In this document: in pieces, positions 5,072-30,314 of the stretch
How the letters are laid out: every line of letters starts with the position of its first letter
Numbering within the stretch: the stretch's first letter is position 1
Virus record (IMG/VR): IMGVR_UViG_3300047160_005224
Location: 96,403-160,402 of that record
Source: a virus
Lineage: Duplodnaviria; Heunggongvirae; Uroviricota; Caudoviricetes
Length of the DNA: 64,000 nt
Direction: 5' to 3' (one strand)
Made by a program: the position numbers and the translations under genes
Notes under the pieces: model-generated
Database searches by the model: none
What the model was told of the DNA's origin: nothing
What the model saw: the letters and a program-made list of their open reading frames with translations, nothing else

Positions 5072-5089
5072 GGCACATTCCCAGGTTGG

Positions 5090-7467: not shown

Positions 7468-7476
7468 AATGTGGAC

Positions 7477-7707: not shown

Positions 7708-7721
7708 GTACCACCTGAAAT

Positions 7722-7800: not shown

Positions 7801-7805
7801 AATTG

Positions 7806-8469: not shown

Positions 8470-8481
8470 AAAACTTATGAA

Positions 8482-8922
8482 TCAAAGATCTCTCAGCGCA
8501 AGGTCGCCAGGAAAGATCTTGTTAGAACGCAGTTCTGTGTATCCAATGTACGGATACGACACGTAATGATAGTCTTTCCTCATTTCCTTGTCGATTCGAC
8601 CGTATTCCTCGACCTTCTGACGATAATTGGCATATTCAGGATTGCGAGAACCACCAACAGGATATGGTGGATACGGATTGGCTCGAGAAGCTGCTTCGTA
8701 GTCATACGGAATCTTTGTTTCGCGATGTTCGAACACACGACGAAACTTCTTGATCTGCATGACAACACGATTGCCTCGACGACCAAGATAGCGACCGAAG
8801 TGCAAGTTTGCACTTCCAGCACACTTTGTCACAGCAACAGCCGGATCACCAGGATGGAGAGTCATTCCATAACTGTTGGTGAACGGAACTTCCTCATATG
8901 GCTTGATACGTGGCGTTGCCAT
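8482..8922 (-). CDS. hypothetical protein (~147 aa, start MATPRIK)
   Basis: Minus ORF 8482-9048 trimmed because a tRNA-Ser occupies 8944-9034. Confidence 0.5.
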   Translation of the reverse strand: MATPRIKPYEEVPFTNSYGMTLHPGDPAVAVTKCAGSANLHFGRYLGRRGNRVVMQIKKFRRVFEHRETKIPYDYEAASRANPYPPYPVGGSRNPEYANYRQKVEEYGRIDKEMRKDYHYVSYPYIGYTELRSNKIFPGDLALRDL

Positions 8923-8943
8923 CAGAACCTCATAACAAAGAAT

Positions 8944-9034
8944 TGGCGGAGAGAGGCTGGAATCGAACCGCTGGCGCTTCCGCGCTCGCATGACTTTCAA
9001 GGTCATCGCTGCATCCCCGGCAGCATCACTCTCC
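8944..9034 (-). tRNA. tRNA-Ser(UGA), type II, weak T-stem
   Basis: Acceptor GGAGAGU/UCUCUCC plus G-CCA. D-stem GCUGC/GCAGC. Anticodon arm AUGAC-CUUGAAA-GUCAU. Variable-arm hairpin GCGC-GGAA-GCGC. T-loop UUCGAUU. Confidence 0.5.
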
Positions 9035-9197
9035 AAATAAGTGAGCACTATCTCTAATGCTCATCCACCGACCGAAACCGATGGAGTGGTATTGGTCCCG
9101 TGTTTTACGTGTTGACTCGGGTTCACGCATGGGATACCATGATCTAGGGACGCCATTTCTGGCTAATCCTCCACCACCCAGTTTACGTCTGGGAACG

Positions 9198-9374
9198 TCA
9201 GTCGTCAAGACCCACAAAATCTGCAAGTTCCTGTCGCGCAGCAAGAAAAGCCTCGCGCAGTCGATGGAACTCAACATCCTTGATTTCCGAGAAAGAGGAG
9301 TATGAATTGAAGGCATAATCAAAGCCTTCACATTCAACCACCGTCTGAACGTACTCAAGGTCTTTCTGCTTCAT
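9198..9374 (-). CDS. hypothetical protein (~58 aa, start MKQKDLEY)
   Basis: Minus ORF trimmed to avoid the tRNA at 9390. Confidence 0.4.
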   Translation of the reverse strand: MKQKDLEYVQTVVECEGFDYAFNSYSSFSEIKDVEFHRLREAFLAARQELADFVGLDD

Positions 9375-9389
9375 GACAATTCTCGTAGC

Positions 9390-9466
9390 TGGTACCGGAG
9401 ATGGGAATCGAACCCACACTTTGGAAGATTTTAAGTTTTCCGCCTCTGCCTTTGGGCTACTCCGGC
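9390..9466 (-). tRNA. tRNA with anticodon UAA (Leu codon UUA) in a type-I body
   Basis: Acceptor GCCGGAG/CUCCGGU plus A-CCA. T-arm GUGGG-UUCGAUU-CCCAU. Anticodon arm GAAAA-CUUAAAA-UCUUC. Confidence 0.45.
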
Positions 9467-9470
9467 AAAT

Positions 9471-9562
9471 TGGTGCTTCAGGTAGGAATCGAACCTACAT
9501 CGTTCCCTTATCTGGGGATCATGGCTTATAAGACCACCGCACTACCATTGTGCTACAGAAGC
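9471..9562 (-). tRNA. type II tRNA, 92 nt, anticodon loop CUUAUAA (UAU); isotype uncertain
   Basis: Acceptor GCUUCUG/CUGAAGC plus A-CCA. D-arm GCAC-AAUGGUA-GUGC. Anticodon arm GUGGU-CUUAUAA-GCCAU. 22-nt variable arm. T-arm GUAGG-UUCGAUU-CCUAC. Confidence 0.45.
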
Positions 9563-9646
9563 AAAGGCGTCGACAATCATCATACATGTCGACTGGTCTA
9601 TCAAACGTTGTCCGTTTCGTAATCGTCCGGCGTTTGACAGAACGTT

Positions 9647-9723
9647 TGGTACCCATGACAGGATTCGAACCTGCACTGAACAGAACCTAAATCTGTTGTC
9701 TCTACCAGTTGGACTACATGGGC
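9647..9723 (-). tRNA. tRNA with anticodon UAG (Leu codon CUA) in a type-I body
   Basis: Acceptor GCCCAUG/CAUGGGU plus A-CCA. Anticodon arm ACAGA-UUUAGGU-UCUGU, G37. T-arm GCAGG-UUCGAAU-CCUGU. Confidence 0.5.
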
Positions 9724-9732
9724 AAAACTATC

Positions 9733-9824
9733 AGGATGCGCGATATACGGGATTCGAACCCGTTAAGTTTGCTTTCAAGGCAAAGTGCGAACCAATCGCG
9801 ATTATTGTTTGCTGCAGGCATCCT
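9733..9824 (-). other. tRNA-like element (UGA anticodon hairpin plus T-arm, no D-arm) inside the inverted repeat AGGAUGC...GCAUCCU
   Basis: Inner stem CGCGAU/AUCGCG, anticodon arm UUUGC-CUUGAAA-GCAAA, T-arm ACGGG-UUCGAAU-CCCGU. Bounded by the same IR as 1512-1580. Confidence 0.35.
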
Positions 9825-9897
9825 AGTTACTGATCGATCAGCGCATTAAGCGCCAGGATCATGTTTGGTTCCGGTGTCACTCACACCGGAGAAGAGA

Positions 9898-10068
9898 TCA
9901 CTTCGTGTCGGTAGTCGAAGTGGACGTCGGCGCGGACTGGGCAACCGGAGCCGTCACGACAGGAGCCGGAGCAGCGACCTGAGCAGCCTTGCTCTTGTGA
10001 TACTTGACGACACCAGCGACGATCAGAGCAACAACGGCAACACCGATAAGAACAACAGACAAGGACAT
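9898..10068 (-). CDS. small membrane protein (~56 aa, one TM then Ala/Pro/Thr-rich tail)
   Basis: Minus ORF trimmed to MSLSVVL because a tRNA-Met lies upstream. Confidence 0.4.
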   Translation of the reverse strand: MSLSVVLIGVAVVALIVAGVVKYHKSKAAQVAAPAPVVTAPVAQSAPTSTSTTDTK

Positions 10069-10099
10069 GGCAGAACTCCAGGGTTTGGCGGGTAGAACT

Positions 10100-10170
10100 T
10101 GGTCGTGGTAACAGGAATCGAACCTGTCCAAATCCCTTATGAGGGGATCGTAGCCCCAGGCGATACCACG
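10100..10170 (-). tRNA. tRNA-Met(CAU), second CAU tRNA, 71 nt
   Basis: Acceptor CGUGGUA/UACCACG plus A-CCA is perfect. Anticodon arm AUCCC-CUCAUAA-GGGAU. T-arm ACAGG-UUCGAUU-CCUGU. Confidence 0.6.
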
Positions 10171-10175
10171 ATGAT

Positions 10176-10269
10176 TGGCGGAAGGCATCGTACTCGAAAC
10201 GAATCCGGTGTTTGAGACCGAACAGATCGCTTAGCAGGCGTCCACAGCATCCTAGCTGCTTTACCTTCC
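10176..10269 (-). tRNA. tRNA-Ser(GCU), type II, 94 nt
   Basis: Acceptor GGAAGGU/GCCUUCC plus G-CCA. D-arm CAGC-UAGGAU-GCUG. Anticodon arm GACGC-CUGCUAA-GCGAU. Long variable arm. T-loop UUCGAGU. Confidence 0.55.
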
Positions 10270-10274
10270 AGAAT

Positions 10275-10363
10275 TGGCGGGAAAAGTTGGAGTCGAACCA
10301 TTGGTTGATTTTGCTGTAACGACTCTACTTCAGAGTCAGTCCGGCGCCAGCCGGGCTTTTCCC
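10275..10363 (-). tRNA. type II tRNA, 89 nt; anticodon hairpin GACUC-UGAAGUA-GAGUC, isotype uncertain (Leu-like?)
   Basis: Acceptor GGGAAAA/UUUUCCC plus G-CCA is perfect. D-stem CCGG/CCGG. Weak T-stem. Confidence 0.45.
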
Positions 10364-10373
10364 GTTTGAAACT

Positions 10374-10451
10374 TGGTACCCCTGGTCGGACTCGAACCGA
10401 CAAATCTCCGATTTTTGAGAACGGTGCATCTACCAATTCTGCTACAGGGGC
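10374..10451 (-). tRNA. tRNA with anticodon CAA (Leu codon UUG) in a type-I body
   Basis: Acceptor GCCCCUG/CAGGGGU plus A-CCA. Anticodon loop CUCAAAA. T-arm GUCGG-UUCGAGU-CCGAC. Confidence 0.5.
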
Positions 10452-10539
10452 ATATCAACAATCACAGCGTGTGGTTTGTCGCGAGACAATTCCAATAATA
10501 GTTCGCTAGTGGGTTGCGGAACACACGCTAAAGTCTTTG

Positions 10540-10767
10540 TCAACCGCCGTGTTTGAAGAACTCGATGCTCTTCTCTTGGCTGTTGACCCATTCATCACTT
10601 GGTTTCCCTTCGCCTTTGTAATAGCGCAGTGGTCGCCCAGTGCTCTTTGAGACAATTGCCCACTTACCATCTACTTTCTTCAGATGCTCTTGAAGAGGGA
10701 GTGTCTCAATAAATTCGTTGTAGGTCTTCATCAGTGACTTCCTCTGCTGGTCAGTGTATATAGCCAA
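10540..10767 (-). CDS. hypothetical protein (75 aa)
   Basis: Minus ORF. Confidence 0.45.
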   Translation of the reverse strand: MAIYTDQQRKSLMKTYNEFIETLPLQEHLKKVDGKWAIVSKSTGRPLRYYKGEGKPSDEWVNSQEKSIEFFKHGG

Positions 10768-10790
10768 CCAGCAGAGGAATTAGATGTCGA

Positions 10791-11273
10791 TCAGTGGATT
10801 GTGGTGCCTTCCGGCAGGATGGCATCGAGACCATCCAGACCCAGCTTAGTCAGCTCATCGACGATGTCGGAGCGACGTGCCGGATCATTCTTGATGTTCT
10901 CGATTTCCTCGAGAGCCGCCGCATTGACGGTGGTGCCCGGGAAAGTTTCGACGACGTGCTTGGCCAGGGCGAGGTGATTGATTTCGCGCTGACCATTGCT
11001 CTCGACGATGAACTTGTTGTCGCCGAAAAGCATGTCCACCATCAGAGCTTCGTTACCGACGCCGGAGAGTTCGCGGGCGAGGCATTCGGTGATGATGTGC
11101 AGGTCGAGCGGCAGCACCTTGTTGGTGTCGACGTCTTCCGCGTAGTCGAACTTGAAGTTCTGGCTGATGTACAGCGCAGCATCGTTCGGGCAGCTCAGGC
11201 GCTTCAGCGCATTGAGCAGGGAGTTGGACAGGAAGACCGACTGCAGGTCGGCAGTGACGCGATCGAATGCCAT
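10791..11273 (-). CDS. hypothetical protein (~160 aa, start MAFDRV; alternative start at 11342)
   Basis: Minus ORF directly downstream of the tmRNA terminator. Confidence 0.55.
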   Translation of the reverse strand: MAFDRVTADLQSVFLSNSLLNALKRLSCPNDAALYISQNFKFDYAEDVDTNKVLPLDLHIITECLARELSGVGNEALMVDMLFGDNKFIVESNGQREINHLALAKHVVETFPGTTVNAAALEEIENIKNDPARRSDIVDELTKLGLDGLDAILPEGTTIH

Positions 11274-11336
11274 GATATAGTTCCGTTTTGGTGGTGGAAA
11301 GTTTTCAGAGAACCTATCGTAGCATTCTCGTGCGTC

Positions 11337-11379
11337 AAACAAAAGAGGAGCTGCCCAATGAGGGACCTAGAAGGGCAGC
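11337..11379 (-). terminator. rho-independent terminator at the 3' end of the tmRNA coding piece
   Basis: Hairpin GCUGCCC...GGGCAGC followed on the minus strand by UCCUCUUUUGUUUG. Confidence 0.6.
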
Positions 11380-11700
11380 GAGTCTAGGGAGATTGTCGGT
11401 CAAGACTGCCGATTAGGCAGCGAGACGGACCTCAAACGTGTCATCGTTTGCGTTTACTTTGTTTTATGCCGATTACGTCGGGCATCTCTCGGGCTGTCAG
11501 CTCGCATATCTTCCCACGTCGAAACCTGGTCCACCCCATCAAAAACACAGTGTCCATAACGCGGACTTGTCTCGACTTCGCAGAGTGCACATACCGCTGA
11601 TCGTCTAACTGTGCTTTTGGTGGAGTGGGCGGGAATCGAACCCGCGTCCGCAAGACCTTTTGGTCACATCATACAGCCATAACTTCAAAGATGTACTCTA
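11345..11700 (-). ncRNA. ssrA: tmRNA (ssrA), circularly permuted two-piece form
   Basis: tRNA-like 3' half GGACGCGGGUUCGAUUCCCGCCCACUCCACCA at 11650-11618 lies upstream of the 5' acceptor strand GGGGUGG (11537-11531; G3-U70 pair). Then GACCAGGUUUCGACGUGGGA, close to E. coli GGGGCUGAUUCUGGAUUCGACGGGA. Tag frame GCA-AAC-GAU-GAC-ACG-UUU-GAG-GUC-CGU-CUC-GCU-GCC-UAA reads ANDDTFEVRLAA. Terminator follows. Confidence 0.7.
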
Positions 11701-12044
11701 CCGTGCTTTTGTAGGGGTAAGCAAAGCAGCCATTCTTCAGAGTCCTGCAGAACCCAAGAACGCTTTCTTTACTGCACGCGAAACCATTACGTTTGTCGTA
11801 GAGCACATGTTTGAAACTACTGGGCGCTTCGCCAGTCACACTCGCGAGCTTTCTCGTTTTGAGTATTCGTCAGATGCGCATTAACCTGTTTACATCAGGT
11901 CAGACTAGTCCTCAATTCTTCTTCGCCGGCAAACTTGCCCCATTCGTCAATAGGATTTGCCTTACAGCGGGGTACCACCTTTTGCGGTATCAGACCTGCA
12001 GCAAGCGGGACTGGCGAAGCACCCAGTAGAAACAGTATATAGCT

Positions 12045-15135: not shown

Positions 15136-15323
15136 TCCTTGTACATGTCATTGCCCCATGGATCAACACCCATCCCAATGCCCATGATGAATCCAACGGC
15201 AAGAGAAAAGGTTAACAGCGCCAGGAATCCGTGTTGAGTATCAGCCAGTTGGATTGCCAGTGCGCCCAGCAATCCACCAACAATGAACGCGATGATGCGA
15301 ATTGGCCAATCCCTCATCACCAT
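15129..15323 (-). CDS. small membrane protein (~65 aa, 2 TM)
   Basis: Hydrophobic minus ORF, trimmed from 15428. Confidence 0.4.
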   Translation of the reverse strand: MVMRDWPIRIIAFIVGGLLGALAIQLADTQHGFLALLTFSLAVGFIMGIGMGVDPWGNDMYKDW

Positions 15324-16021
15324 CCCTCCATCGGAAACGGCAGATAGACTTGCGCATTCATGCGGATTTCGTTCGTGACGTTCTTTTGACGATCGGTCTG
15401 AATCGAAGCACGACCGAACCAACGCCAACCGTTCTTGCGCGCAGGAATGGCTTGATGGAAGTCGAACGAATCGAACAGGATCAACTGGCGATCCGGGACT
15501 TCGAGTACATCGACGGTTCCGTTCTTGACCATTTCCTCCAGCTCAAGATGCCACTGTCGATAGATGAGTTCGCCATCCGGGACCTGCTTCATCTTGCATG
15601 TGCCATGGATGAATTGGGTCGGTGCGACTTCAGCATTGACCAACCCCATCATATGCACTGCCTTGTACGACATGTTCTCGTAATCAGGCTGCGATGCCGT
15701 CAGGAAATGCTGGCCAGCAGGAATGGGCGGACGAGGAACATCGTCGTGGTGCCAGCCGGGAATGCCAGGATACCAACCAGGCATCAGCATGTGCACACGA
15801 CTGTCGAACACCGCATTGTCCCAGTCGACATGGCCAGGAAGATTGCCGATGAAGGACTTGGTGATCGGTCCGCCATGTTCGAAAGCAAACTTTGCGCTGG
15901 CATTGAAGAACATCGGTTCCTTCTTGATGTCTTCGTTGGGCACCTGCTCAGCAAACCTGACTGGCCTACTAGTAGAACTCATGGCATGCCAGCCGCTGTA
16001 GAAGACCTTGCCTTCCTTCAT
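15317..16021 (-). CDS. putative 2OG-Fe(II) oxygenase superfamily protein (PhyH-like)
   Basis: 234 aa. HxD-like motif GWHHDD and a C-terminal His-x10-Arg (FHQAIPARKNGWRW). Sits immediately upstream of NadV. Confidence 0.4.
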   Translation of the reverse strand: MKEGKVFYSGWHAMSSTSRPVRFAEQVPNEDIKKEPMFFNASAKFAFEHGGPITKSFIGNLPGHVDWDNAVFDSRVHMLMPGWYPGIPGWHHDDVPRPPIPAGQHFLTASQPDYENMSYKAVHMMGLVNAEVAPTQFIHGTCKMKQVPDGELIYRQWHLELEEMVKNGTVDVLEVPDRQLILFDSFDFHQAIPARKNGWRWFGRASIQTDRQKNVTNEIRMNAQVYLPFPMEGW

Positions 16022-17463
16022 ACCGAAGCCCTCTTGCGGATGTTGTCGAAGATGTCGAGGCGAACGTGGGTGTCGGTCGTGTCATGGTGATAGACCGTTT
16101 CGAGTTGATTTCGCGGAGCATCCATGCCGAGCGCGAACCACGCGCTCTTACGCATCGTGCCCCAAACATCGCCATCACGGATCACGGCGAACTGACCGCG
16201 CTTCGACTTCTTGCCTTTGTCGGTCACCGGATCCTTGTAGATGTCGACTTCCTTGCCATTCACGATGCCCCAACTTGCCTTCATCGCCCACTTGAAGGTG
16301 TCACGATTGACTTGCTGGAGCAAACCGCCGCCCATGCCGAAGGCAAGGCAGTCCATCGAGAAGCCACGATTGAGCAAGTTGTCGATGATTTTGGGAATCG
16401 ATGTAACATTGATGCCGTCGCCCTGGATCACGCCGACATACGGCGGAAGGACCTTGTAGCCCTTGTCGTTGATCAGCTTCTCAGGAGTCAGATCCCAAAG
16501 CATCTCGACGATGTCGATCGGAACTACCAACGGATCGCCGCTGTCGGGGCGGATGACGACCTTGCATCCCTTCGCCTTGACTTGTTCCAGAAGACCGGTG
16601 CCGACCCAGAGGTTTCGCACGGCATTGTAGATGTCGTAGGCGTCCGATACCACAGCAAAGATCTTGCCAGGCTCGGTGGCGTACGCATCGATCATTGCCT
16701 GGAAGGCTTCACGTTCGCCTTCCTTGCCGCGGATCGTCATGGTGCTGTGCTCTGCGGCAGGAATCGAGAAGCCGCAGACGTCAGCGTTGTAGTAGTGCAT
16801 GGCAGCAGCGATGCCGGCGATGGTGTCCGAGCCCATGAAATTGATCAGATGGGCAGCACCACCAAGCTGTGCCGACTCATCGCTCGAGACGCCGCGATAA
16901 CCGAAGTCGTGTAGCTTGAACGTGACGCTTGCGGGATCACCAGAACGATCCAGAGCATCAAGGATGTATTCCTTGCAAGTGCGCGAAATCGTGGCGACGG
17001 TCGAACCATACCAGACGCTGCTCAGGATTGCCGGCTCGAAATACGAAGTGAGCCATGCGCACTTGTCGTCGGTGTTGACGATTTGGACCATCGGAGTGCC
17101 GATCGGGACAGGCGTGCCTTCCGGAATGGCTTCGATGTGAAGCGGAAGGAAGCCCTGGTGATGATTGACGATGTACAGCCAGCCATCGAGATTGAACGGC
17201 TCGCCATGAACCTTGGCGAACGCTGCCGCCTCGTTGACTTCTTCGACGGTGATTGGCTGTAACAGGAAGTCCTTGACGAACTTCTGAAGACCGAACATGA
17301 CGACATGTTCGACACCTTGGATGGTCGAGCCACGCGCTTCGATGTACGACGAGATGTACTTGGTACCTTTGGGATACTGCGCGAAATGGCTGAGCTTGTA
17401 GCTGTCCGTCTTCAGGAGACGGTTATTGAGAATCGACATCAGAAACTCCTTCTTGATGGTCAT
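16018..17463 (-). CDS. nadV: nicotinamide phosphoribosyltransferase (NAMPT/NadV family)
   Basis: ~480 aa with the conserved NAMPT N-terminus LLKTDSYKLSHF. PRTase type II length and composition. Confidence 0.75.
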   Translation of the reverse strand: MTIKKEFLMSILNNRLLKTDSYKLSHFAQYPKGTKYISSYIEARGSTIQGVEHVVMFGLQKFVKDFLLQPITVEEVNEAAAFAKVHGEPFNLDGWLYIVNHHQGFLPLHIEAIPEGTPVPIGTPMVQIVNTDDKCAWLTSYFEPAILSSVWYGSTVATISRTCKEYILDALDRSGDPASVTFKLHDFGYRGVSSDESAQLGGAAHLINFMGSDTIAGIAAAMHYYNADVCGFSIPAAEHSTMTIRGKEGEREAFQAMIDAYATEPGKIFAVVSDAYDIYNAVRNLWVGTGLLEQVKAKGCKVVIRPDSGDPLVVPIDIVEMLWDLTPEKLINDKGYKVLPPYVGVIQGDGINVTSIPKIIDNLLNRGFSMDCLAFGMGGGLLQQVNRDTFKWAMKASWGIVNGKEVDIYKDPVTDKGKKSKRGQFAVIRDGDVWGTMRKSAWFALGMDAPRNQLETVYHHDTTDTHVRLDIFDNIRKRASV

Positions 17464-17508
17464 TGGCAGGGAGGCATCTGTTGCCTCCACAGAGTAGATA
17501 GGAGAAGT

Positions 17509-17991
17509 TTAGTCCTTCAGCAGCGGACCAAACACTACATCGCCGGTCAGTTTACGGAACGCCAGCTTCGAGACAATGGACTTGCGTTTCCGCTCGCGCT
17601 CAGAGGCATCCCAATCCTTGCGGAGAGCAGCTTGCTCGATCCGAACATTGATGTGGGCATAGACTTCGAGCATGATGGACACAACTTCCGGATCATCTTC
17701 GCATTGGAAGTAACCATCAAAGAGATTGCCGGAAACTTCCGAGCCGAGTTTGATTTCCTCGTCACCGATCATGTATGTCACACGAACGGAGTTGTATCCA
17801 AATCCACGTTCGAGATAGACCTTGAGAGGACCGCCCGTTGCGGGAATGCTGAACGACAGAGTCCACTCACGATCACGGACCTGACGAGCAGATGGAGCAT
17901 GCCAAGTAAGATGGCGGATAGCTCCTTCCATCATCTTGTCGAACGCCTGCCAGCGTTCACGAATTCTGCGACGCTTCTTGAAGCCAAACAT
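17509..17991 (-). CDS. hypothetical protein (160 aa)
   Basis: Minus ORF. Confidence 0.5.
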   Translation of the reverse strand: MFGFKKRRRIRERWQAFDKMMEGAIRHLTWHAPSARQVRDREWTLSFSIPATGGPLKVYLERGFGYNSVRVTYMIGDEEIKLGSEVSGNLFDGYFQCEDDPEVVSIMLEVYAHINVRIEQAALRKDWDASERERKRKSIVSKLAFRKLTGDVVFGPLLKD

Positions 17992-18443
17992 CAGTAGGTC
18001 TCCGCTTCGCGTTCGATGAGATCGGCAAGCGCGCCGAAATCGAGATTGTAGGTGTCGTTGAGTTCAGAAAGCTCATACTTCCTGGGAAATTTGTCTTCGG
18101 CCGAGGCACCACGCACTCCTTCATCAACTTCTGATGTCAGAGCGTGCACACTCAAAGAGTACCCAACACCATCGTTCCATTGCTGGGACGCTTCCGGAAG
18201 TTCAATACCGTGATCACGATACCAACCCAACGTTGGCAGTGAGCAAGGCTCACTGATGCCGATTGGGGAATTGTATTCGACTTTACCGTCAGCAACCATC
18301 TGCAGGACGCCAAGACAGCAGTAACCGACTTCTCCATCAGGACGTTTTGCTTGGAGGAAATGGCATGCTTGGTTGTATCGTTCCGAGCACAGAGCTTCGA
18401 CCCACTTGGTCAACAGCTCTTTGGGCATTTTGAACAAGCTCAT
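17991..18443 (-). CDS. paralog family member 1 (150 aa; WVEALCSERYNQ...CCLGVLQMVADGK...LNDTYNLDFGALADLIE)
   Basis: Shares N- and C-terminal motifs with five downstream paralogs. Confidence 0.6.
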   Translation of the reverse strand: MSLFKMPKELLTKWVEALCSERYNQACHFLQAKRPDGEVGYCCLGVLQMVADGKVEYNSPIGISEPCSLPTLGWYRDHGIELPEASQQWNDGVGYSLSVHALTSEVDEGVRGASAEDKFPRKYELSELNDTYNLDFGALADLIEREAETY

Positions 18444-18676
18444 GATTCGGTTGCCTTGGTGACAAAGTTATGAACGGTTTCTGACAGTTCGTTCTCGCCC
18501 ATATATCCTAACTTAGACGAAAGCCAATCCATATCAGCCTTCGATACAACCACGAACTCTTCTTCCCAGTTGGTGATCTTTGGAAAGTGAAGGATCGTAC
18601 TTGCCGGAACGGTGCTTGGCAGAAAGACTGCGACCGTGAATCCATTACCAGGAAATGTTCCGACTTCGATCTTCAT
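18440..18676 (-). CDS. hypothetical protein (78 aa), inserted between paralogs
   Basis: Minus ORF. Confidence 0.45.
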   Translation of the reverse strand: MKIEVGTFPGNGFTVAVFLPSTVPASTILHFPKITNWEEEFVVVSKADMDWLSSKLGYMGENELSETVHNFVTKATES

Positions 18677-19131
18677 CAGACACCTTCCACGTACTTCTCG
18701 ACGAGATTGGCGATCTCCACGAACGAGAGACCTACTTCGTCGTTCAGTGCCGAAAGCGAATAACGACCGCCAATCATGTCAACGATGCTGGCGCGTCCAG
18801 TCGGAAGATTGAATGCCTTGATATCAGACAAAGAGACTTCAATCACGATCGGAATTTCATCACACGCCATCATTCCGGCACTGTATTCAAAACCAGGATC
18901 CGGTTCGATGTTGTGCTCTTCATACCAGCGAATGATTGGAAGCGCTGGGCGAGGATTGCCTTCGCTGTCGTCGATCTTGCCATCAGCAACCATCTGCAGG
19001 ACGCCGAGGCAGCAATAGCTGTGTTCACCGGAAGAATCGGTATCCCTCATCGTTCCAGTGCATTGCTTGTATTCGCCAGAACGAAGCGCGGCAATCCAGT
19101 TGTTCTTGAGTTCAGCAGGCATCTTCGACAT
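18676..19131 (-). CDS. paralog family member 2 (151 aa)
   Basis: Motifs WIAALRSGEYKQ, CCLGVLQMVADGK and C-terminal LNDEVGLSFVEIANLVE. Confidence 0.6.
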   Translation of the reverse strand: MSKMPAELKNNWIAALRSGEYKQCTGTMRDTDSSGEHSYCCLGVLQMVADGKIDDSEGNPRPALPIIRWYEEHNIEPDPGFEYSAGMMACDEIPIVIEVSLSDIKAFNLPTGRASIVDMIGGRYSLSALNDEVGLSFVEIANLVEKYVEGV

Positions 19132-19136
19132 GGCGA

Positions 19137-19613
19137 TTAGTCCGTTACTTCGATATTGGGTTCGAGGATATCAGCGATGTGAGCAAAATCGCACTGATAT
19201 TCGTCGTTCAGGATAGGAACGCGAATTGTCCTGATCGCAGATTCGCTTTCCGTCTCGACAATAGCACTCACCAATGGATTGGTGTTTACTATAGCTGCAA
19301 CGGACGCACCCGAGAACGAAATCCCATGTTTGATGAGCCAGTCAGAGCTTGGCAGACCAAGAGAATCACCATCGGGAAAGTGTTCGACTTGGCCATCCAC
19401 GACCATCTGCAGGACGCCGAGGCAGCAGAACTTTCCTTCATTGGTCATCAACTGACCGATGCCCTTTTGGAATTGACCAGAACGAAGACCTTCCAGCCAT
19501 TTCTCTTTGATGATGCGCGGCATACGCATCGTGCATTCGACAGGAGTCTTGACAGGATTGATCACCATGTCGGAGTCGATATGGCAGACGTCGGCAACTT
19601 CGATCTTGTTCAT
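19137..19613 (-). CDS. paralog family member 3 (~159 aa from MNKIEV; ORF extends to 19886)
   Basis: Motifs WLEGLRSGQFQKG, CCLGVLQMVVDGQ and C-terminal LNDEYQCDFAHIADILE. Confidence 0.55.
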   Translation of the reverse strand: MNKIEVADVCHIDSDMVINPVKTPVECTMRMPRIIKEKWLEGLRSGQFQKGIGQLMTNEGKFCCLGVLQMVVDGQVEHFPDGDSLGLPSSDWLIKHGISFSGASVAAIVNTNPLVSAIVETESESAIRTIRVPILNDEYQCDFAHIADILEPNIEVTD

Positions 19614-19623
19614 GACTGATTCC

Positions 19624-20061
19624 TCAGGTGCTCTCGATGGATGCTTCGAGGAAGTCCGCCATTTGCTCGAACGACGCGCCAGCATCGTTGACATGAGCAG
19701 CATTGAACATCCCTTCGTAGCCAGTTCGCTCTTCACGAAGGAACAGCATTGGTGCGCGAAGTGTGCCGTTTGCCAAGTCGCCGGATTGGCGCTGAAACAG
19801 AATGTTGTGTTCCTGCAACCATTCGACAGATGGAAAACTGGCGAATTTGGGCTCGAAGGCCAACGCATCATCCTCGACGCGACCACTCACCACCATCTCG
19901 AGAACACCCAAACAGCAGTAACCGCCCCTGCCGTCACACAAAGAACCGAAGCCCTGTTGATATTCACCAGAACGGAGAGCGCTCAACCACTTTTCCTTGA
20001 TTTCAGCAGGCATCGTGATGCTCTTGCGACCAACAGCAGTGTAACTTTCCATCGACATGAC
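19624..20061 (-). CDS. paralog family member 4 (~146 aa from MSMESY; ORF extends to 20349)
   Basis: Motifs WLSALRSGEYQQG, CCLGVLEMVVSGR and C-terminal VNDAGASFEQMADFLE. Confidence 0.55.
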   Translation of the reverse strand, partial: VMSMESYTAVGRKSITMPAEIKEKWLSALRSGEYQQGFGSLCDGRGGYCCLGVLEMVVSGRVEDDALAFEPKFASFPSVEWLQEHNILFQRQSGDLANGTLRAPMLFLREERTGYEGMFNAAHVNDAGASFEQMADFLEASIEST

Positions 20062-20068
20062 TTGTTCC

Positions 20069-20524
20069 TCAGATGATTTCGATTGCCGTTTCCAGGATAT
20101 CAGCAATCTCCAGGAAGTCATAGCCGTCGTCGTTGAGAGCAGTGACATTGACAACCGTACTGCAACGTGTTCCGGAGATATTTTCCTGCATGCGAATGAA
20201 CGGTGAGCGGCGGTATTCGGAGTCCACCCACAGCTCCTGACCAACAGGCATCGGATACATGAACTTGATGTTGTTCGCGTCCAGCCATGCCATGGTAGGA
20301 ACCCTTTCGTAGTTGCCGGGATGCAGTGCTTCACGTTCGCACTTGCCACTCACCACCATCTGCAGAACGCCCAGGCAACAATATCCACCATTGCCATCAC
20401 ACAAAGCTTTCCTGCCTTGCTGGTATTCACCAGAACGGAGAGCGCTCAACCACTTTTCCTTGATCTCTGCGGACATGAAAACGCTCTTGATGCCGAGGGT
20501 GTCGCTCTTTGTCAGATGACTCAT
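20069..20524 (-). CDS. paralog family member 5 (151 aa)
   Basis: Motifs WLSALRSGEYQQG, CCLGVLQMVVSGK and C-terminal LNDDGYDFLEIADILE. Confidence 0.6.
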   Translation of the reverse strand: MSHLTKSDTLGIKSVFMSAEIKEKWLSALRSGEYQQGRKALCDGNGGYCCLGVLQMVVSGKCEREALHPGNYERVPTMAWLDANNIKFMYPMPVGQELWVDSEYRRSPFIRMQENISGTRCSTVVNVTALNDDGYDFLEIADILETAIEII

Positions 20525-20534
20525 GACCGGTTCC

Positions 20535-21029
20535 TCAGTAGGTCTGGATCAGCGGCTCGAGAAAGTCAGCGATTTCCTCGAACGTGCAGCCGTTGTCGTT
20601 GAGCGAAGCGGCGGATTCGCAGGTTTCCGTCGGAGGAAGCTTGATGAGATTGCCCTCGTCATCTTCTTCCGTGGGTTCGAGTTCCGTGACGTAGATCGTC
20701 GGAACGGTGACGGCATAGCCAAGATGGTCGAAGAACTTGATGCCGTTTGCAGTCAACCACTCCATCGGAGGAACGGCGTCGCAAAGCGGGTTGCCTTGCA
20801 TATCGAATTCGCCGTCCGCTGCGCCGTGCGAAACTTCGCCGCTGACCACTTCCTGCAGGACGCCGAGACAGCAGTAGCTGGCATTGCCATCAGCATCGAA
20901 TCGCTTGAGTCGACCACTGCACTGCTGGAATTCGCCGGAGCGAAGTGCTGCCATCCACTTCTCCTTGATGGCTTCCGGCATGGTGGCAACAAACGGCAGG
21001 TGGGGCTGCGGACGGGCTTCGTACTTGGA
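20535..21029 (-). CDS. paralog family member 6 (~165 aa; ORF extends to 21086)
   Basis: Motifs WMAALRSGEFQQC, CCLGVLQEVVSGE and C-terminal LNDNGCTFEEIADFLE. Confidence 0.55.
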   Translation of the reverse strand, partial: SKYEARPQPHLPFVATMPEAIKEKWMAALRSGEFQQCSGRLKRFDADGNASYCCLGVLQEVVSGEVSHGAADGEFDMQGNPLCDAVPPMEWLTANGIKFFDHLGYAVTVPTIYVTELEPTEEDDEGNLIKLPPTETCESAASLNDNGCTFEEIADFLEPLIQTY

Positions 21030-21133
21030 CATGGGAATTCTCACGATTGGAGCAGCAGGGATTGCCACTCTTCTATTCATACTCACAGTGACTGATTATA
21101 GTCAGTCGACTGACCAAAGAAACGGTTGATGAC

Positions 21134-22486: not shown

Positions 22487-22843
22487 TCACTTCACCAGGT
22501 AATAGTTGGCGAGGAAGTCGAGATGTTCTTCCGTCTTCTCGACTTGTTGTTTGGCTTCTTGCAACATCTTGACACGGCGATTGTACCAGGTCTTGTTGAT
22601 CGGCGCCAACGAGCATTCCGACACCAACGCATACTTGGTACCATCCGGTCCCTTGGTCTTACCAAGGCGCGAAGTGGTTTTGAGAACCGCGCCACTCCAG
22701 CCATCGAGCCAGTAGACCTTGTAGTAGGTGTCGTTGACTTCCTTGACCTGGCACGCTTCCCACGTTCCAGTCCGAGAATTCTTCCGGCGAAGCGCCAAAT
22801 ACCACTGGCCGACCGTCACGTACTCCGGGATCATGCTCTTCAT
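22487..22843 (-). CDS. hypothetical protein (118 aa)
   Basis: Minus ORF. Confidence 0.5.
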   Translation of the reverse strand: MKSMIPEYVTVGQWYLALRRKNSRTGTWEACQVKEVNDTYYKVYWLDGWSGAVLKTTSRLGKTKGPDGTKYALVSECSLAPINKTWYNRRVKMLQEAKQQVEKTEEHLDFLANYYLVK

Positions 22844-23376
22844 TAGAAGCTCTCCGAGAAGACCTTGGTGGTGCCGCGACCGTTCTGGTACAGCACACGC
22901 CCGCCAGTGACCAGATATCCAGCGCCATCCTTGTAGTCACCGTCCGAGAAGGTACGCGGATCCACAACCACACGACTGCCCGGGGCATTGCCCACCACCG
23001 CATGATCGATGTCGGTCGCGGTGTACCAGCGATAGTTCGGGTGGACGTGAATCGACTCGCCGACCCACTTGTAACCTTCGACCACGGCGCCTTCAGGAGT
23101 GGCACAGAATCCATGGGCGTGGACCGTGACCAGGACAACGGACATGTTTCCGGCTTCGTTCGCAGCCAACTGGCCGCATGCCTCGAAGCGAGAGTCGTGA
23201 ATCCACTTATCGAGGATCACGGCGACGCGGTCAATGAACTGAACCTTGGTTTCACCCGGGTTCTGCACGACCTGCTGGATGAACTCCATGCGGACGGTCG
23301 GAACATCATCGGCGCGAGCAAAGCCCGACACCATACCCAGAGCGAAAGCAGCAGCGGCGAACAAGAAGCGTTTCAT
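22843..23376 (-). CDS. secreted hypothetical protein (177 aa, N-terminal signal peptide)
   Basis: N-terminus MKRFLFAAAAFALGMVSGFARA looks like a Sec signal. Confidence 0.5.
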   Translation of the reverse strand: MKRFLFAAAAFALGMVSGFARADDVPTVRMEFIQQVVQNPGETKVQFIDRVAVILDKWIHDSRFEACGQLAANEAGNMSVVLVTVHAHGFCATPEGAVVEGYKWVGESIHVHPNYRWYTATDIDHAVVGNAPGSRVVVDPRTFSDGDYKDGAGYLVTGGRVLYQNGRGTTKVFSESF

Positions 23377-23905: not shown

Positions 23906-24976
23906 TTACAGGCGCGGCAACAATTGGAGCATCGTCTCGATGATTTGGAAGTGATCCTCAAACATGTTCGAAGATCCGATGTCATTCAGCGGAAGCCAGA
24001 AAGAACGCACCACGCCACCATCCGGATCACACTTGGTCTTAAGTTTCGGAAGATCCTTTGTGTCATCCAGCTTGATGAGGAATGCGGTGGTTACAGTTCT
24101 GCCGCGCAAAGAACGTTCCGGATCATCGAAGATCTCTTTGGCGACAATTCGTCCACGAAGAACTTCCTTCTGGATATTGATGCCGGTCTCTTCGTCCAGT
24201 TCGCGAAGCATCGAATCGACAAGCCGATCCTTCTGTTCGACGAAGCCACCAGGGAGACAGTACAATCCCTTGCCTGGTGTCTTACCACGTTCGCATAGAA
24301 GAATGTGACCCGATTGGATCACGACAGCGTCCACCGTCAAAAAGGTCGGTGGATATGGAGCGACTTCCCAACTCTTCTTGTACTTGGAGATGTCTTTGTA
24401 TTCCTCGATCAAACATTGGATCTGATCGGTATTCTTCAACAGCAAAAGCTTGTTGAAGACAGATTGCGGAACACTTCCGTGCGCGTAGGCAAGCTGATCC
24501 GTGAAATAGAACTCACGAATCTTCGTGGCGTCGATGTTGAAGCTTTCACCAGGACCGAGTTCCTTGTACGGAATCTCGCTGAAAGCGAAATTCGGGAACC
24601 AGTCGAGATAACGCGAGGTGTTGTCCTTGTTGTGACCTACCAAGACAACAGATCCCTTGCGCGGAAGCTTGTAGTGGTCCAGAATGACCTTCACACGTCC
24701 ATTGACGCGCGAGATCCACGCCTGATCGCTCGGGCTGTCAAACACATAAGTCACATCCGGCGCAGGAAGACCCAACTCCACGCAGGAGTTCAAGATCATC
24801 TGCTCGCGTTGTGCGATCGTGAATGGATTTTTGATGGTGCGTGGTCCGCCAGTATCACCTAGCAGGACCAGCACTCGATGAGCGATCTTGAACGCTTCCG
24901 AGATCAGATGCATGTGTCCGTTGTGAACAGGATGCATCCGACCGATGACAATTGCGACTTCGTATTGCTTGGACAT
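23906..24976 (-). CDS. natV: bifunctional NMN adenylyltransferase / Nudix ADP-ribose pyrophosphatase (NadM/NatV-like)
   Basis: N-terminal HxGH nucleotidyltransferase motif (HPVHNGH). C-terminal Nudix box GGFVEQKDRLVDSMLRELDEETGI. Confidence 0.75.
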   Translation of the reverse strand: MSKQYEVAIVIGRMHPVHNGHMHLISEAFKIAHRVLVLLGDTGGPRTIKNPFTIAQREQMILNSCVELGLPAPDVTYVFDSPSDQAWISRVNGRVKVILDHYKLPRKGSVVLVGHNKDNTSRYLDWFPNFAFSEIPYKELGPGESFNIDATKIREFYFTDQLAYAHGSVPQSVFNKLLLLKNTDQIQCLIEEYKDISKYKKSWEVAPYPPTFLTVDAVVIQSGHILLCERGKTPGKGLYCLPGGFVEQKDRLVDSMLRELDEETGINIQKEVLRGRIVAKEIFDDPERSLRGRTVTTAFLIKLDDTKDLPKLKTKCDPDGGVVRSFWLPLNDIGSSNMFEDHFQIIETMLQLLPRL

Positions 24977-27110: not shown

Positions 27111-28544
27111 TCAGAGATCGTAGCGCGGGTTCATCAGGGTCTTCAGCATGACCGACTCGGGAGTCATCAGCTGGGCACCCAGGATCGACTTCGCGATCGA
27201 CGGCGAGAAGCCAGAGATCAGAGCAGCACCAGACTGGTGCTGGGTGACCGGACTGTTGCCGACACGACCGTTGACGTTCCAGAACACCAGCTGCGGCATC
27301 GCGTAACCAGCCGCCTTGTACTTCGCTTCGATGTTCTCGAAGTTGGTAGAGCGGTTGGCAGCGCAGGAGTCGAACTCCATGTCCGAAATCACCAGCACCT
27401 TGGTCGGCAGGTCTTCGTTCGACAGACCGTGCTTCTTCGCGGTGTTGAGGATCAACTCGAACGCAGCCTGGAGATTGGTGTTCATCTCCCACTTCGCGGT
27501 CTCGAGCTGCGACACACGATCACGCAGAGTTCCCTTAACGACCTGGAGCGTCGGAGTGTTCGAGAACGTGATGAACGCATCCTTGAACGGTCCGTTCAGC
27601 TTCTCGGACACGTACAATGCCAGCGAGATGCAGATGTCCATCGGAGTGACGTTGCCGATGTTTCCGCGATTGGTGCCATAGCCCCAGTTAGTCATCGACC
27701 CAGAGGTGTCGGCGACCACGATCAGGCGCTCGTCGGAACCTTCCAGCCAATTCGGCAGAGCCTTCCACTGCTCATTGGCAGCGTCCTGCTCGACCTTGTT
27801 GTAGGAAGCACGCAGCGAACGGATGATGTCGTACGGGAACACCGCCGAGGCGTTGATCTTGGCTTCGCCAGCCTGGACCTTTGTCACGAAGGTCTGGAAC
27901 TTCTCTGGCGCGCGCTTCGAGAAGGCACGCTTGTAGCGAGCGAACGCCACGGACGGAACCTGGTTGTACTTGATTTCGTCCCACTTGCCGGCGCACATCG
28001 CCTGCTCGACGGTGTTCGACAGATTGACGATCGTCTTGCGGTACTGCTTTGGCGTGTAGCCAAGCAAATGACGTAAGCGGACAGCGTCTTCGCCCTTGCG
28101 AGGCAGCCACTTTGCCAACAGACCATTCTTCTGTGCGATACCTTCGCGCACTAGTTCGACGACTTCGTTTTCGATCGGCGAACGCAGACCGATGAGAATG
28201 TCGTCCCAGCGACCGAGTTCCGGAACCTTGGTCAGGACCGCGAGAGCGGCATCCTTGTGGTTGCGGATCAGCCAGCCGAACAGATTGCGAAACTGCTGAC
28301 GTTCACCAGCACCTTCGCGAGCATCACGCAGCCACTGGACCAGGCGCAGAGCCAGGTATTCGTCTTCGGCAAAAGCCTTGGCGAACTGAGCGGTGAGGTC
28401 ATTGCCACGAGACGCGCCGGCGATGAAGAACAGATCCACGAGCGCCGACAGCGAGGACTTGAAGGTCTTTGCGCCATTGTAGGTCTGGGCAGTGTTCTGC
28501 GAGGCAGAAGATGCGATTGCGTTGACGAGCTTGTTACGTGCCAT
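27111..28544 (-). CDS. vWA-domain protein with long alpha-helical N-terminal domain (possibly TROVE/Ro60-like)
   Basis: 477 aa; MIDAS motif VVADTSGSMT in the C-terminal third. TROVE assignment is inference from domain layout only. Confidence 0.5.
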   Translation of the reverse strand: MARNKLVNAIASSASQNTAQTYNGAKTFKSSLSALVDLFFIAGASRGNDLTAQFAKAFAEDEYLALRLVQWLRDAREGAGERQQFRNLFGWLIRNHKDAALAVLTKVPELGRWDDILIGLRSPIENEVVELVREGIAQKNGLLAKWLPRKGEDAVRLRHLLGYTPKQYRKTIVNLSNTVEQAMCAGKWDEIKYNQVPSVAFARYKRAFSKRAPEKFQTFVTKVQAGEAKINASAVFPYDIIRSLRASYNKVEQDAANEQWKALPNWLEGSDERLIVVADTSGSMTNWGYGTNRGNIGNVTPMDICISLALYVSEKLNGPFKDAFITFSNTPTLQVVKGTLRDRVSQLETAKWEMNTNLQAAFELILNTAKKHGLSNEDLPTKVLVISDMEFDSCAANRSTNFENIEAKYKAAGYAMPQLVFWNVNGRVGNSPVTQHQSGAALISGFSPSIAKSILGAQLMTPESVMLKTLMNPRYDL

Positions 28545-29324: not shown

Positions 29325-30314
29325 TCAGAACTTCATCAAGAACGTCTGGCCAGGAATCAGCTTGCGGTTCGTGCTGGTCGATTGGACGTAGATCTGCCAA
29401 TCACCGAAGTCGCCGGGCTTGACATTGGTTTCGTAGCCCGGAAGACCCAGCACATTGCGAGCGTTGGCACCGGAGTAGATCTTGCCGTCCTTGCGGTTGC
29501 GGATCGCGATCTGCTTCTGACCCTGGATCGTTTCCGGCTTGGTCAGTTCGTAGAACACCGAACCGAGGATGTAGCCGCGACCCGTCACCTGCTGAGTGTA
29601 TTCGCGGATCGGCTGCGCACTGGTTGCAGTCACCGAGTATTGACGGAAGGAATTATCTTCGACGAGAGCCGCCTTGACGTCGCTCGTGGTCAGATTCTTG
29701 GTGTCGACGAACAGGCGAGTCGAGCCGACCGAACCGGAAGCACGGCTGACGCTGTAGCTCTGATAAGTGTCGACCAAGCGACGACCAACTTCTTCGAAGC
29801 CAGTACTGGAGCGCGTGTTCCAGACTTCGATGTTGCCAGCCGGGAAGCCGCAGTTCTTGGCATAGTGCACGCCAGAGATGTCCGGAACCAGAGCAGCGAC
29901 AGTCCAGTTTTCCGGCAGAGAACTGATCAGGCTCTTCAGCGTGAAAGCGCTGACCTTGCGAGAAGCGTTCTCCTGGCCATCGGTGATTGCATACAGCAGA
30001 TAGCTGTGATCTTCATCGGCGCCGGTGAGGAGGTTCTTGTGTTCGCTGATGGCTTGTTCGACCGCATCGAGGAGAGCAGTCTGGCCATTGGAATTGAAGC
30101 GGAAATCGGCGAGAGCTTCTGGATGACGCAGATGGAGCTTGCGCTCGACACGGTCATTGAAGGTATAGAGGGAGATGCGGGTGACCTGTTCTGCCTGAGA
30201 CAGCGGGTCCTTGAGACCACGGATCACCTGCTCGACGGCGCGAGCATGGGAGGACATGGAGCCAGAAGCGTCCACGACGAAGATGACATTGTTGACGAGA
30301 GTCTTGTTCGACAT
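29325..30314 (-). CDS. vWA-domain protein (second copy; ~330 aa from MSNKTLVNN)
   Basis: MIDAS motif FVVDASGSMS near the N-terminus. Confidence 0.6.
   Translation of the reverse strand: MSNKTLVNNVIFVVDASGSMSSHARAVEQVIRGLKDPLSQAEQVTRISLYTFNDRVERKLHLRHPEALADFRFNSNGQTALLDAVEQAISEHKNLLTGADEDHSYLLYAITDGQENASRKVSAFTLKSLISSLPENWTVAALVPDISGVHYAKNCGFPAGNIEVWNTRSSTGFEEVGRRLVDTYQSYSVSRASGSVGSTRLFVDTKNLTTSDVKAALVEDNSFRQYSVTATSAQPIREYTQQVTGRGYILGSVFYELTKPETIQGQKQIAIRNRKDGKIYSGANARNVLGLPGYETNVKPGDFGDWQIYVQSTSTNRKLIPGQTFLMKF

Follow-up and report, generated by a model that had tools for sequence, protein, structure and literature searches.

A six-copy array of DUF8296 paralogs in the genome of a T4-superfamily phage

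The Array and Its Genes

The viral record IMGVR_UViG_3300047160_005224 (Caudoviricetes) carries, within the stretch of 64,000 nucleotides analyzed here (positions 96,403 to 160,402 of the record; hereafter the window), six diverged paralogous genes on the minus strand, which are referred to as W1 to W6. Profile matches show this array to be a six-copy expansion of the Pfam family DUF8296 (PF26948), which corresponds to phrog_18067. The initial annotation, which was made from the sequence without database searches, assigned the family to no known domain; all six products are now placed in DUF8296 and phrog_18067. PF26948 is found on every one of them in the precomputed annotation of the source contig (E <= 1e-5 class), as well as on the family proteins P0001, P0002, P0008, and P0015, and phrog_18067 (no known function) is matched by all six in hmmscan with E-values of 4e-7 to 5e-18. 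Four of the phrog_18067 matches are full-length, and those of W2 and W6 extend over the N-terminal block only. The architecture is single-domain, in that each of the six proteins (144-165 amino acids, aa) has one match, within positions 5-129 of the 133 in the profile. A hidden Markov model (HMM) of 114 family members identifies exactly six copies in the window, with domain E-values of 1e-34 to 1e-41, and no seventh.

Scans of the six proteins against NCBIfam, PADLOC, and a local Pfam release matched no family, and the PADLOC defence HMMs were likewise without a match. DUF8296 went unmatched in the local Pfam scan because that release predates the family. The only match in these scans was to YcgN (E = 0.2) and was dismissed as spurious.

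The six genes were initially described as consecutive minus-strand open reading frames (ORFs) that encode acidic proteins with common N- and C-terminal blocks. The ORF listing, a MAFFT alignment, and the calculated isoelectric points (pI 4.25-5.04, net charge -5 to -18) bear this out, with the qualification that a 78-aa ORF unrelated to DUF8296 separates W1 from W2. This small ORF has no PHROG or Pfam match and no homolog in 33 other DUF8296 loci, and its origin as a degenerate family copy was ruled out (hmmsearch --max, E = 0.93). None of the neighbors tested in the same way (orf78, orf111, orf118, orf127, and orf156) qualifies as a degenerate copy. The starts first given for W4 (20061) and W6 (21029) are each 3 nt off; position 20061 reads GTC, which is not a start codon, and independent gene calls put W4 at 144 aa and W6 at 165 aa. 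All six ORFs are intact and each is preceded by a ribosome-binding site. W3 has an N-terminal extension of 27 residues, and W6, for which the longest ORF extends to 21086, has an acidic insert (EPTEEDDEGN) and the most negative charge of the six (-18). A scan for promoters and terminators gave no signal above chance. The placement of nadV and natV on either side of the array, also noted at the outset, is confirmed by their Pfam domains (Table 1).

Table 1. Coordinates of the array genes, their junctions, the crossover stretches, and the flanking nadV and natV genes (window positions).
Feature	Position	Strand	Remarks
nadV, nicotinamide phosphoribosyltransferase, flanking	16018-17490	minus	Pfam NAPRTase 8e-48 and NAMPT_N 5e-24
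W1, DUF8296 paralog	17991-18443	minus	150 aa, pI 4.57; phrog_18067 E=4e-7; family HMM E=1.4e-34; PF26948 precomputed
78-aa ORF, unrelated to DUF8296	18440-18676	minus	between W2 and W1; ATGA-type overlaps with both neighbors
W2, DUF8296 paralog	18676-19131	minus	151 aa, pI 4.44; phrog_18067 E=2.9e-13; family HMM E=1.1e-35
Crossover stretch, W2 side	18989-19014	minus	26 nt TGCTGCCTCGGCGTCCTGCAGATGGT, encodes CCLGVLQM, identical in W3
W3, DUF8296 paralog	19137-19613	minus	158 aa, pI 4.66; phrog_18067 E=3.7e-11; family HMM E=4.9e-38
Crossover stretch, W3 side	19402-19427	minus	26-nt twin of the W2 stretch
Junction motif W4/W3 CTGAGGAATCAGTCATG	19611-19627	minus	stop TGA overlapping GAGGA Shine-Dalgarno, then ATG of next copy
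W4, DUF8296 paralog	19624-20058	minus	144 aa, pI 4.65; phrog_18067 E=2.5e-15; family HMM E=2.3e-40
Junction motif W5/W4	20056-20072	minus	same 17-mer as W4/W3
W5, DUF8296 paralog	20069-20524	minus	151 aa, pI 5.04; phrog_18067 E=5e-18; family HMM E=1.3e-41
Junction motif W6/W5	20522-20538	minus	same 17-mer as W4/W3
W6, DUF8296 paralog	20535-21032	minus	165 aa, pI 4.25; phrog_18067 E=3.3e-14; family HMM E=2.9e-36
natV, nicotinamide mononucleotide (NMN) adenylyltransferase and Nudix, flanking	23906-24976	minus	precomputed Pfam CTP_transf_like (weak) and NUDIX, 356-aa product

Size and Distribution of the Family

DUF8296 is large. A profile search of a 5.8-billion-protein collection returned at least 6,937 matches among 8,000 candidates scored, and HMMER searches of 1.84 billion cluster representatives, with clusters defined at 50% identity, recovered 39,626 clusters at E <= 1e-3 and 12,291 at E <= 1e-10. 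Among cultured phages the family is rare, being present in 12-13 of 50,697 records. The carriers are Synechococcus phages B3 and B23, Ralstonia phage RSP15, Alteromonas phages AD45-P1 to P4, a Bradyrhizobium phage, Stenotrophomonas phages CM1 and RAS14, and a Tunturiibacter phage. Megablast of 10 kb around the array against the same 50,697 records found no relative, the sole match being one of 60-120 bp near nadV.

Among 185,579 species genomes of cellular organisms, a strict motif scan gave zero confirmed DUF8296 loci, and in a relaxed scan for G-Y-C-C-L-G-V-L, 12 of the 82 matches proved to be true loci. The neighbors were scanned in four of these 12, and all four have genes of phage type close by, among them DNA polymerase (PolA), a repressor, a Sak4-like annealase, NinB/Orf, and an integrase. 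Because of these neighbors and of its rarity in cellular genomes, DUF8296 looks essentially phage-borne, occurring in phages with Gram-negative or actinobacterial hosts, both virulent and temperate. Matches of 18 of 114 family members to Lentiviral_Tat were dismissed as an artefact of the Cys-rich motif.

Conservation Pattern and Predicted Structure

The six copies align with 28-35% pairwise identity to W1 and with 20 invariant columns, which lie in the N block (W..L.S and CCLGVL..V..G), a central element (P...W.....I), and the C block (ND.....F...A...E). The middle was at first said to differ completely between copies. This is true of about 12 residues before and 25-50 residues after a sub-block, LPxxxW(L/Y)xx(H/N)(G/N)I, where no alignment is possible, but the sub-block itself is kept in all six. 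Compared among themselves or with 233 further members of the family, the distal variable segments show no significant similarity.

The family at large was profiled from 239 members aligned to the DUF8296 profile, whose numbering is used here for residues. Near-invariant positions are W19, A22, L23, R24, S25, G26, Y28, Q30, L35, C43, C44, and L45 in the N-terminal part, followed by G46, V47, L48, G54, P68, W72, N108, D109, F114, I117, A118, and E122. In contrast, positions 56-67 and 78-105 are almost without consensus, and insertion hot spots follow positions 37, 61, 87, and 98. Since this profile shows the same pattern as the array, the contrast between conserved termini and variable core, which had been read as the mark of an arms race, is not a product of such a race within the array. 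Members of DUF8296 have a median length of 130 aa and a median pI of 4.85, with 75% of them below pI 5.5, and the array copies (144-165 aa) stand at the long end of this range. All family-conserved residues are present in W2 to W6. W1 reads ALCSERY where the other copies have ALRSGEY and has thereby lost R24 and G26, the rest being kept; it is the most divergent copy at the RSG site and the only one in which two near-invariant residues are missing.

An AlphaFold2 model of W5, made with a 114-sequence alignment, has a mean predicted local distance difference test score (pLDDT) of 91.9 and a predicted template modeling score of 0.87, with values below 85 only at residues ~91-110. The protein is predicted to form a compact alpha/beta domain. 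Its elements are, in order, a short strand, helix 19-31 (W..ALRSG), a small beta turn, helix 50-59 (which starts at CC), helix 78-83 (P...W), a beta-hairpin at 109-126, helix 127-132 (which ends in ND), a loop, and a C-terminal helix at 137-147. In this model helix 2 has the family-invariant Cys at its N-terminus, and the penultimate helix closes with the ND pair.

A Foldseek comparison of the W5 model with 350,542 PDB chains gave no informative match (best E 1.8), and a viral model library yielded uncharacterised proteins only. In a PDB sequence search with the 114-sequence profile, the sole match (PRP2, E = 0.41) was spurious. Judged from the model, the DUF8296 fold has no solved or characterised relative detectable by the searches made. 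As no solved structure was matched, there is no likeness to any solved anti-defence protein, and the PDB Foldseek search found no fold similarity to Tad1/Tad2, Acb1/Acb2, Gad1/Gad2, Had1, or the Ocr/ArdA type. Two catalytic arrangements were considered for the conserved Cys and rejected. In a loop of the protein-tyrosine-phosphatase-like type (C-x5-R), the +6 position is Q rather than R and there is no fold match; for a papain-like Cys protease, a conserved His and a fold match are both missing.

Duplication, Age, and Selection

The junctions W6/W5, W5/W4, and W4/W3 share a 17-mer, CTGAGGAAYNNGTCATG, that contains the stop codon of one copy, a Shine-Dalgarno sequence, and the start of the next. 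It occurs three times in the window, always at these junctions, against an expectation of 0.01. The upstream TGA overlaps the GAGGA Shine-Dalgarno, which stands 8 nt ahead of the next ATG. The presence of the same 17-mer at three junctions indicates that the duplicated unit carried its own ribosome-binding site, and the layout suggests that the array genes are translationally coupled.

W4, W5, and W6 are mutual nearest relatives (47-52% identity over core columns), and for W1, W2, and W3 the identity to the other copies does not exceed that to proteins of unrelated phages. The four copies of Synechococcus phage B23 form a clade of their own. From this clade and from the divergence of the window copies it follows that expansions arose independently in different lineages and that the one in the window is old. 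The proposal of tandem duplication followed by divergence is supported by the junction motif, by the clade of W4, W5, and W6, and by a W3/W2 hybrid gene described below. The copies are ancient, and a recent arms-race burst is not visible. Where aligned amino acids of the N block agree, identical codons number 167 against 132 expected, only ~25% above the prediction from codon usage; synonymous sites are therefore near saturation, and the ratio of nonsynonymous to synonymous rates (dN/dS) is not computable across the copies. Since the genes are intact and, except at the RSG site of W1, have kept the family residues despite this saturation, each copy is maintained by purifying selection. Locally, codon identity is higher between W2 and W3 (13/18 vs. 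6.6 expected) and between W4 and W5 (20/35 vs. 13.4 expected, including an exact run of 41 nt), which hints at short conversion tracts in both pairs.

No single-nucleotide difference separates the window (10069-30524) from four contigs (L002-L005), which match it at 100% identity over up to 20 kb and stem from a JGI metagenome (3300031846) and three separate ENA assemblies. The same phage genotype was thus recovered in several samples, and a strain-level dN/dS is for this reason impossible.

Recombination and Recurring Arrays

A contig of 1,362 bp from a sister sample (L111; ENA ERZ27255344, k141_840299) encodes a 174-aa protein, P0022, that consists exactly of the N-terminal part of W3 and the C-terminal part of W2. 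W3 contributes the first 212 nt of the gene and W2 the last 339 nt, with a 26-nt overlap, TGCTGCCTCGGCGTCCTGCAGATGGT, that encodes CCLGVLQM and is the longest exact match between W2 and W3. Positions 311-835 of the contig correspond to window 19613-19402 joined to 19014-18676, so that 413 bp are deleted and the hybrid remains in frame. On both sides of the crossover the contig agrees fully with the window, and its positions 497-1362 match window 19014-18149 at 100% identity. P0022 had been considered as a W2 ortholog for dN/dS and was set aside as a W3/W2 hybrid. The contig probably represents a real deletion by homologous recombination rather than a chimeric assembly, because the 26-nt repeat is far shorter than the assembler k of 141.

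Other proteins carry similar signs. P0016 has a duplicated LPxxxW..GI middle block, as would be expected from an out-of-register crossover, and P0123, P0124, P0151, and P0170 contain two complete DUF8296 domains in one polypeptide. All five would fit an origin by unequal crossover or by the fusion of adjacent array members. Together with the hybrid gene, they indicate that the conserved blocks act as crossover points, by which halves would be reassorted and copy number changed. The hybrid gene indicates that the array is still remodelled by homologous recombination in the CCLGVLQM-coding block, through which N-terminal and variable/C-terminal halves are exchanged.

Multiple copies also occur elsewhere, as counted with the family HMM on fetched loci. 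A 340-kb IMG/VR phage has six adjacent DUF8296 copies and a seventh 27 kb off, and Synechococcus phage B23 has four adjacent copies and a fifth ~7 kb off. Further viral contigs have four, three, or two copies, and the remaining loci, which are the majority, have one. In bacterial genomes, five copies were found in a Nannocystaceae metagenome-assembled genome and three in a Plantactinospora chromosome. The largest array found is thus of six adjacent copies, in the window and in the 340-kb phage alike.

Genomic Context

The source phage is a member of the T4 superfamily, with a primase that shares 55% identity with its counterpart in Stenotrophomonas phage DLP6 and 44-46% with the primases of cyanomyoviruses and Sinorhizobium phage phiN3. 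A tail-fibre protein and the subunits of a class Ia ribonucleotide reductase (RNR) are also encoded in the window. With the exception of nadV and natV, the genes around the array are ORFans, and the interval between these two genes holds ~14 unrelated small genes besides the array.

Several other features of the window were recorded. At 58-10451 the minus strand bears 33 densely packed tRNA genes, and these are followed by a tmRNA gene (11322-11710 by ARAGORN, tag ANDDTFEVRLAA), so that the block including the tmRNA spans 58-11727. The tmRNA is of the permuted betaproteobacterial type (Rfam RF04321, 127 bits; RF01850, 100 bits), which hints at a betaproteobacterial host, and it is the sole RNA family found at the Rfam gathering threshold between 10400 and 64000. 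In the nadV-natV interval, a 177-aa ORF (22843-23376, minus strand) matches phrog_16374 (unknown function) and has a signal-peptide-like N-terminus, MKRFLFAAAAFALGMVSGFARA; its product may be a secreted or periplasmic phage protein. The 234-aa ORF that adjoins nadV (15317-16021, minus strand) matches phrog_1843 (unknown function) and contains the only nucleotide similarity found in the 10-kb region, 76-86% over 60-120 bp, to T4-like Escherichia phages. Further along the minus strand, a gene at 27111-28544 encodes a 477-aa protein with DUF2828/DUF7788 (PHROG RNA-binding protein phrog_850, E = 1e-157), near a gene for a von Willebrand A-domain protein at 29325-30470.

Possible Functions

We incline, tentatively and with somewhat less than even confidence, to a reading in which the conserved core of DUF8296 performs one common binding act and the variable insert sets the partner variant. 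The six proteins would be non-structural accessory proteins, co-transcribed and translationally coupled, that are expressed from a long minus-strand gene block. The core would bind one class of partner or ligand through a polar cluster made up of R/S/Y/Q, the Cys, and the N-D pair, and the insert would fit each copy to a particular variant of that partner. The array would thus offer a range of specificities, in analogy to arrays of diverged immunity proteins. As the target, a host protein family is the most likely class, be it of defence effectors or of proteins subverted in host takeover. DUF8296 may have an anti-host or anti-defence role, and the anti-defence interpretation given to this array at the outset is neither supported nor excluded.

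Several points weigh against this reading. The conserved polar residues may be structural, as helix caps or buried contacts, instead of forming one surface site, and the variable middle may be a mutation-tolerant loop with no part in specificity. The loss of R24 and G26 in W1 means that the six copies need not share one activity. L111 may, although this is unlikely, be an assembly chimera. A literature search for PF26948 and DUF8296 returned no paper and no biochemical or genetic datum for any member. Finally, the adjacency of PolA and helicase genes in other phages fits a replication-related role equally well.

In a role of that kind, DUF8296 would be an accessory factor of replication or nucleotide metabolism, or a small enzyme, and the Cys, N-D, and R/S/Y/Q site would act on a nucleotide, DNA, or the replisome as an active or cofactor site, with the paralogs sub-functionalised. 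No partner gene is conserved across 22 loci, and the only synteny, which is lineage-specific, is with replication genes. In a group of ~60-kb phages, the DUF8296 gene has a DnaB-like helicase on one side and DNA polymerase A on the other, and genes for RNR and a 5'-3' exonuclease are close by. Four IMG/VR contigs of ~13-65 kb (L010, L013, L014, and L017) have a DnaB-like helicase, one to three DUF8296 genes, and DNA polymerase A, with amidoligase and glutamine-amidotransferase genes upstream and a class II RNR downstream. In 7 of 34 independent loci, one of them in an actinobacterial prophage, PolA (the family-A DNA polymerase) is found within ~4.4 kb. DUF6197, a possibly related family, is encoded directly downstream of DNA polymerase I in certain phages (PMC10586128). 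The number of conserved polar residues, which is large for a scaffold of 130 aa, would also suit such a site. However, the array in the window stands ~27 kb from the nearest genes of this kind (nrd from ~48 kb, primase at 52 kb), the family conserves no His, no Lys, and no second acidic residue of the sort usual in Cys hydrolases and transferases, and no enzyme fold was matched. Six diverged copies of a replication cofactor are also hard to explain, and even the position beside replication genes has another reading, since small genes in replication modules are often anti-host, as in the case of gp4.5, gp5.5, and gp5.9 of T7. On balance this role seems unlikely.

The specificity panel that we favor could be taken further. 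DUF8296 arrays might be recombination-driven specificity cassettes, that is, a self-renewing panel of inhibitors directed against a polymorphic host defence or host-factor family. Nucleotide-conserved blocks, such as the one that encodes CCLGVLQM, would serve as crossover sites at which N halves are reassorted with variable inserts and copy number is altered, so that large phages could renew the panel themselves. This proposal is quite doubtful, less probable than even the replication-related role. If true, it would describe a phage counterpart of bacterial immunity-protein arrays, on a fold without a solved relative.

The location of the array between nadV and natV was originally seen as part of a counter-defence island. 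The six proteins could then be decoys or inhibitors tied to the two genes, which together form NARP2, and act against NAD+ depletion of the Thoeris, DSR, or SIR2 type. NARP2 circumvents NAD+ depletion (PMC12028318, citing Osterman et al., Nature 2024), and the proteins are small, acidic, non-structural, and surrounded mostly by ORFans, as in accessory regions. However, among 33 other independent loci, a nadV homolog is near DUF8296 in one, ~9 kb away at the locus edge, and in none is there a homolog of natV, of the window phosphatase, or of the other neighbors in the window. The NAD-salvage neighborhood is thus a feature of this one phage and says little about what DUF8296 does. The family is also common in small temperate phages and prophages without NAD genes, the unrelated small genes of the same interval share its position, and none of the solved anti-defence structures resembles it. 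These points leave the tie to NAD+ metabolism a slim chance. A link to a Ser/Thr phosphatase (Metallophos), which is near the family in B23, RSP15, and the window, was also considered and was dropped, there being no homolog of the window phosphatase in the 33 loci.

A very slim chance remains for a small-molecule sponge that takes up a signalling nucleotide or a NAD-derived messenger, as Tad1, Tad2, and Acb2 do, in which case the variable inserts would play no part or would influence oligomerisation. The small size, the abundance in phages, the conserved polar cluster, and, in this one phage, the nearby NAD genes would agree with it. Against it, the model is not similar to the sponges solved in the PDB, and six diverged copies would have no purpose if the ligand were universal. 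To our knowledge, all described sponges are single-copy genes, and a conserved Cys is not a feature of any of them.

That the array consists of chance ORFs, decaying duplicates, or an assembly artefact is practically negligible as an explanation: nothing specific speaks for it beyond the origin of the sequence in a metagenome assembly, and it is contradicted by six intact ORFs with ribosome-binding sites, family-profile E-values down to 1e-41, the retention of nearly all family residues despite saturated synonymous sites, and the independent assembly of the identical sequence in four samples.

Significance

The array is real and well defined, and it belongs to a family that is already catalogued yet uncharacterised, with comparable arrays in sequenced phages. 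The value lies in the family, as the array alone is one more paralog expansion in the plastic regions of large phages. With at least 39,626 clusters, DUF8296 is among the larger uncharacterised phage protein families, and its predicted structure is confident yet like nothing solved; no publication that mentions it was found. The array offers a convenient entry point, with six diverged intact copies in an operon-like block of a T4-type phage, and the natural W3/W2 hybrid shows how such arrays get remodelled. If the proteins are host- or defence-directed binders, the array would be a ready panel for mapping determinants of specificity onto the variable insert. If they are instead linked to replication, as the PolA adjacency hints, a widespread unknown replisome accessory would be revealed.

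Comparison With Known Systems

The array copies share their length class, conserved blocks, variable middle, and acidity with DUF8296 at large, and multi-copy arrays of the family are likewise found in Synechococcus phages B3 and B23, the 340-kb IMG/VR phage, and prophages. Outside the family, the nearest candidate relative is DUF6197 (PF19698), which, like DUF8296, is functionally uncharacterised. A permissive Pfam scan matched it weakly, below threshold, in 12 of 114 DUF8296 members (best E = 0.0039), and in none of the six array copies at E <= 1. In Gordonia phages of cluster A15, a DUF6197 gene stands directly downstream of DNA polymerase I, a second copy is located elsewhere, and a two-domain fusion form also occurs (PMC10586128). 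The genomic habits of the two families are alike in these respects, with a DNA polymerase I neighbor, a second copy, and tandem two-domain fusions. In Gordonia phage Nebulosus (OR159677, L110), the two genes are gp47 and gp72, at 5741-6100 and 16514-16930, and gp47 adjoins DNA polymerase I.

The motifs of the Nebulosus proteins follow the order seen in DUF8296, with GW.KG, C.CALG, FND, and a C-terminal amphipathic helix; GW.KG ends the N-terminal helix, C.CALG starts helix 2, and FND ends the penultimate helix. By secondary-structure order and motif position, an AlphaFold2 model of gp47 (pLDDT 84) agrees with W5 in the core, but the middle of gp47 is all-helical and that of W5 has a helix and a beta-hairpin. 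The DUF8296 HMM scores only ~0.5 bits on gp47 and gp72, and hhalign against an alignment of the two gave a probability of 1.3% and E = 0.038 over 20 columns, with a target so thin (number of effective sequences, Neff, 1.8) that the power of the test is low. Kinship between DUF6197 and DUF8296 is a lead suggested by motif order and not a result.

A second comparison is by analogy only. According to work by Zhang, Iyer, and Aravind, SUKH-type immunity proteins of polymorphic toxin systems are reportedly small alpha+beta proteins that occur in tandem arrays of diverged paralogs, also in viruses, and such arrays are said to have been read as panels of specificities against variable toxins. The DUF8296 array is similar in its arrangement. 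Unlike the SUKH arrays, it has no adjacent toxin gene, and DUF8296 has a strongly conserved set of polar motifs. SUKH-type structures such as Syd are present in the PDB, and DUF8296 showed no Pfam match to SUKH/SMI1_KNR4 and no structural match to Syd/SUKH structures.

With regard to NARP2, both of its genes (nadV and natV) bracket the array, but DUF8296 is no component of the system and does not co-occur with it elsewhere. The setting is closer to what Comeau and colleagues reportedly described in 2007, namely a plastic periphery of T4-superfamily genomes that is rich in small ORFans. As in those hyperplastic regions, the array lies among small ORFans near a tRNA block. Unlike the typical plastic regions of the superfamily, however, this one holds a structured and old family of six paralogs.

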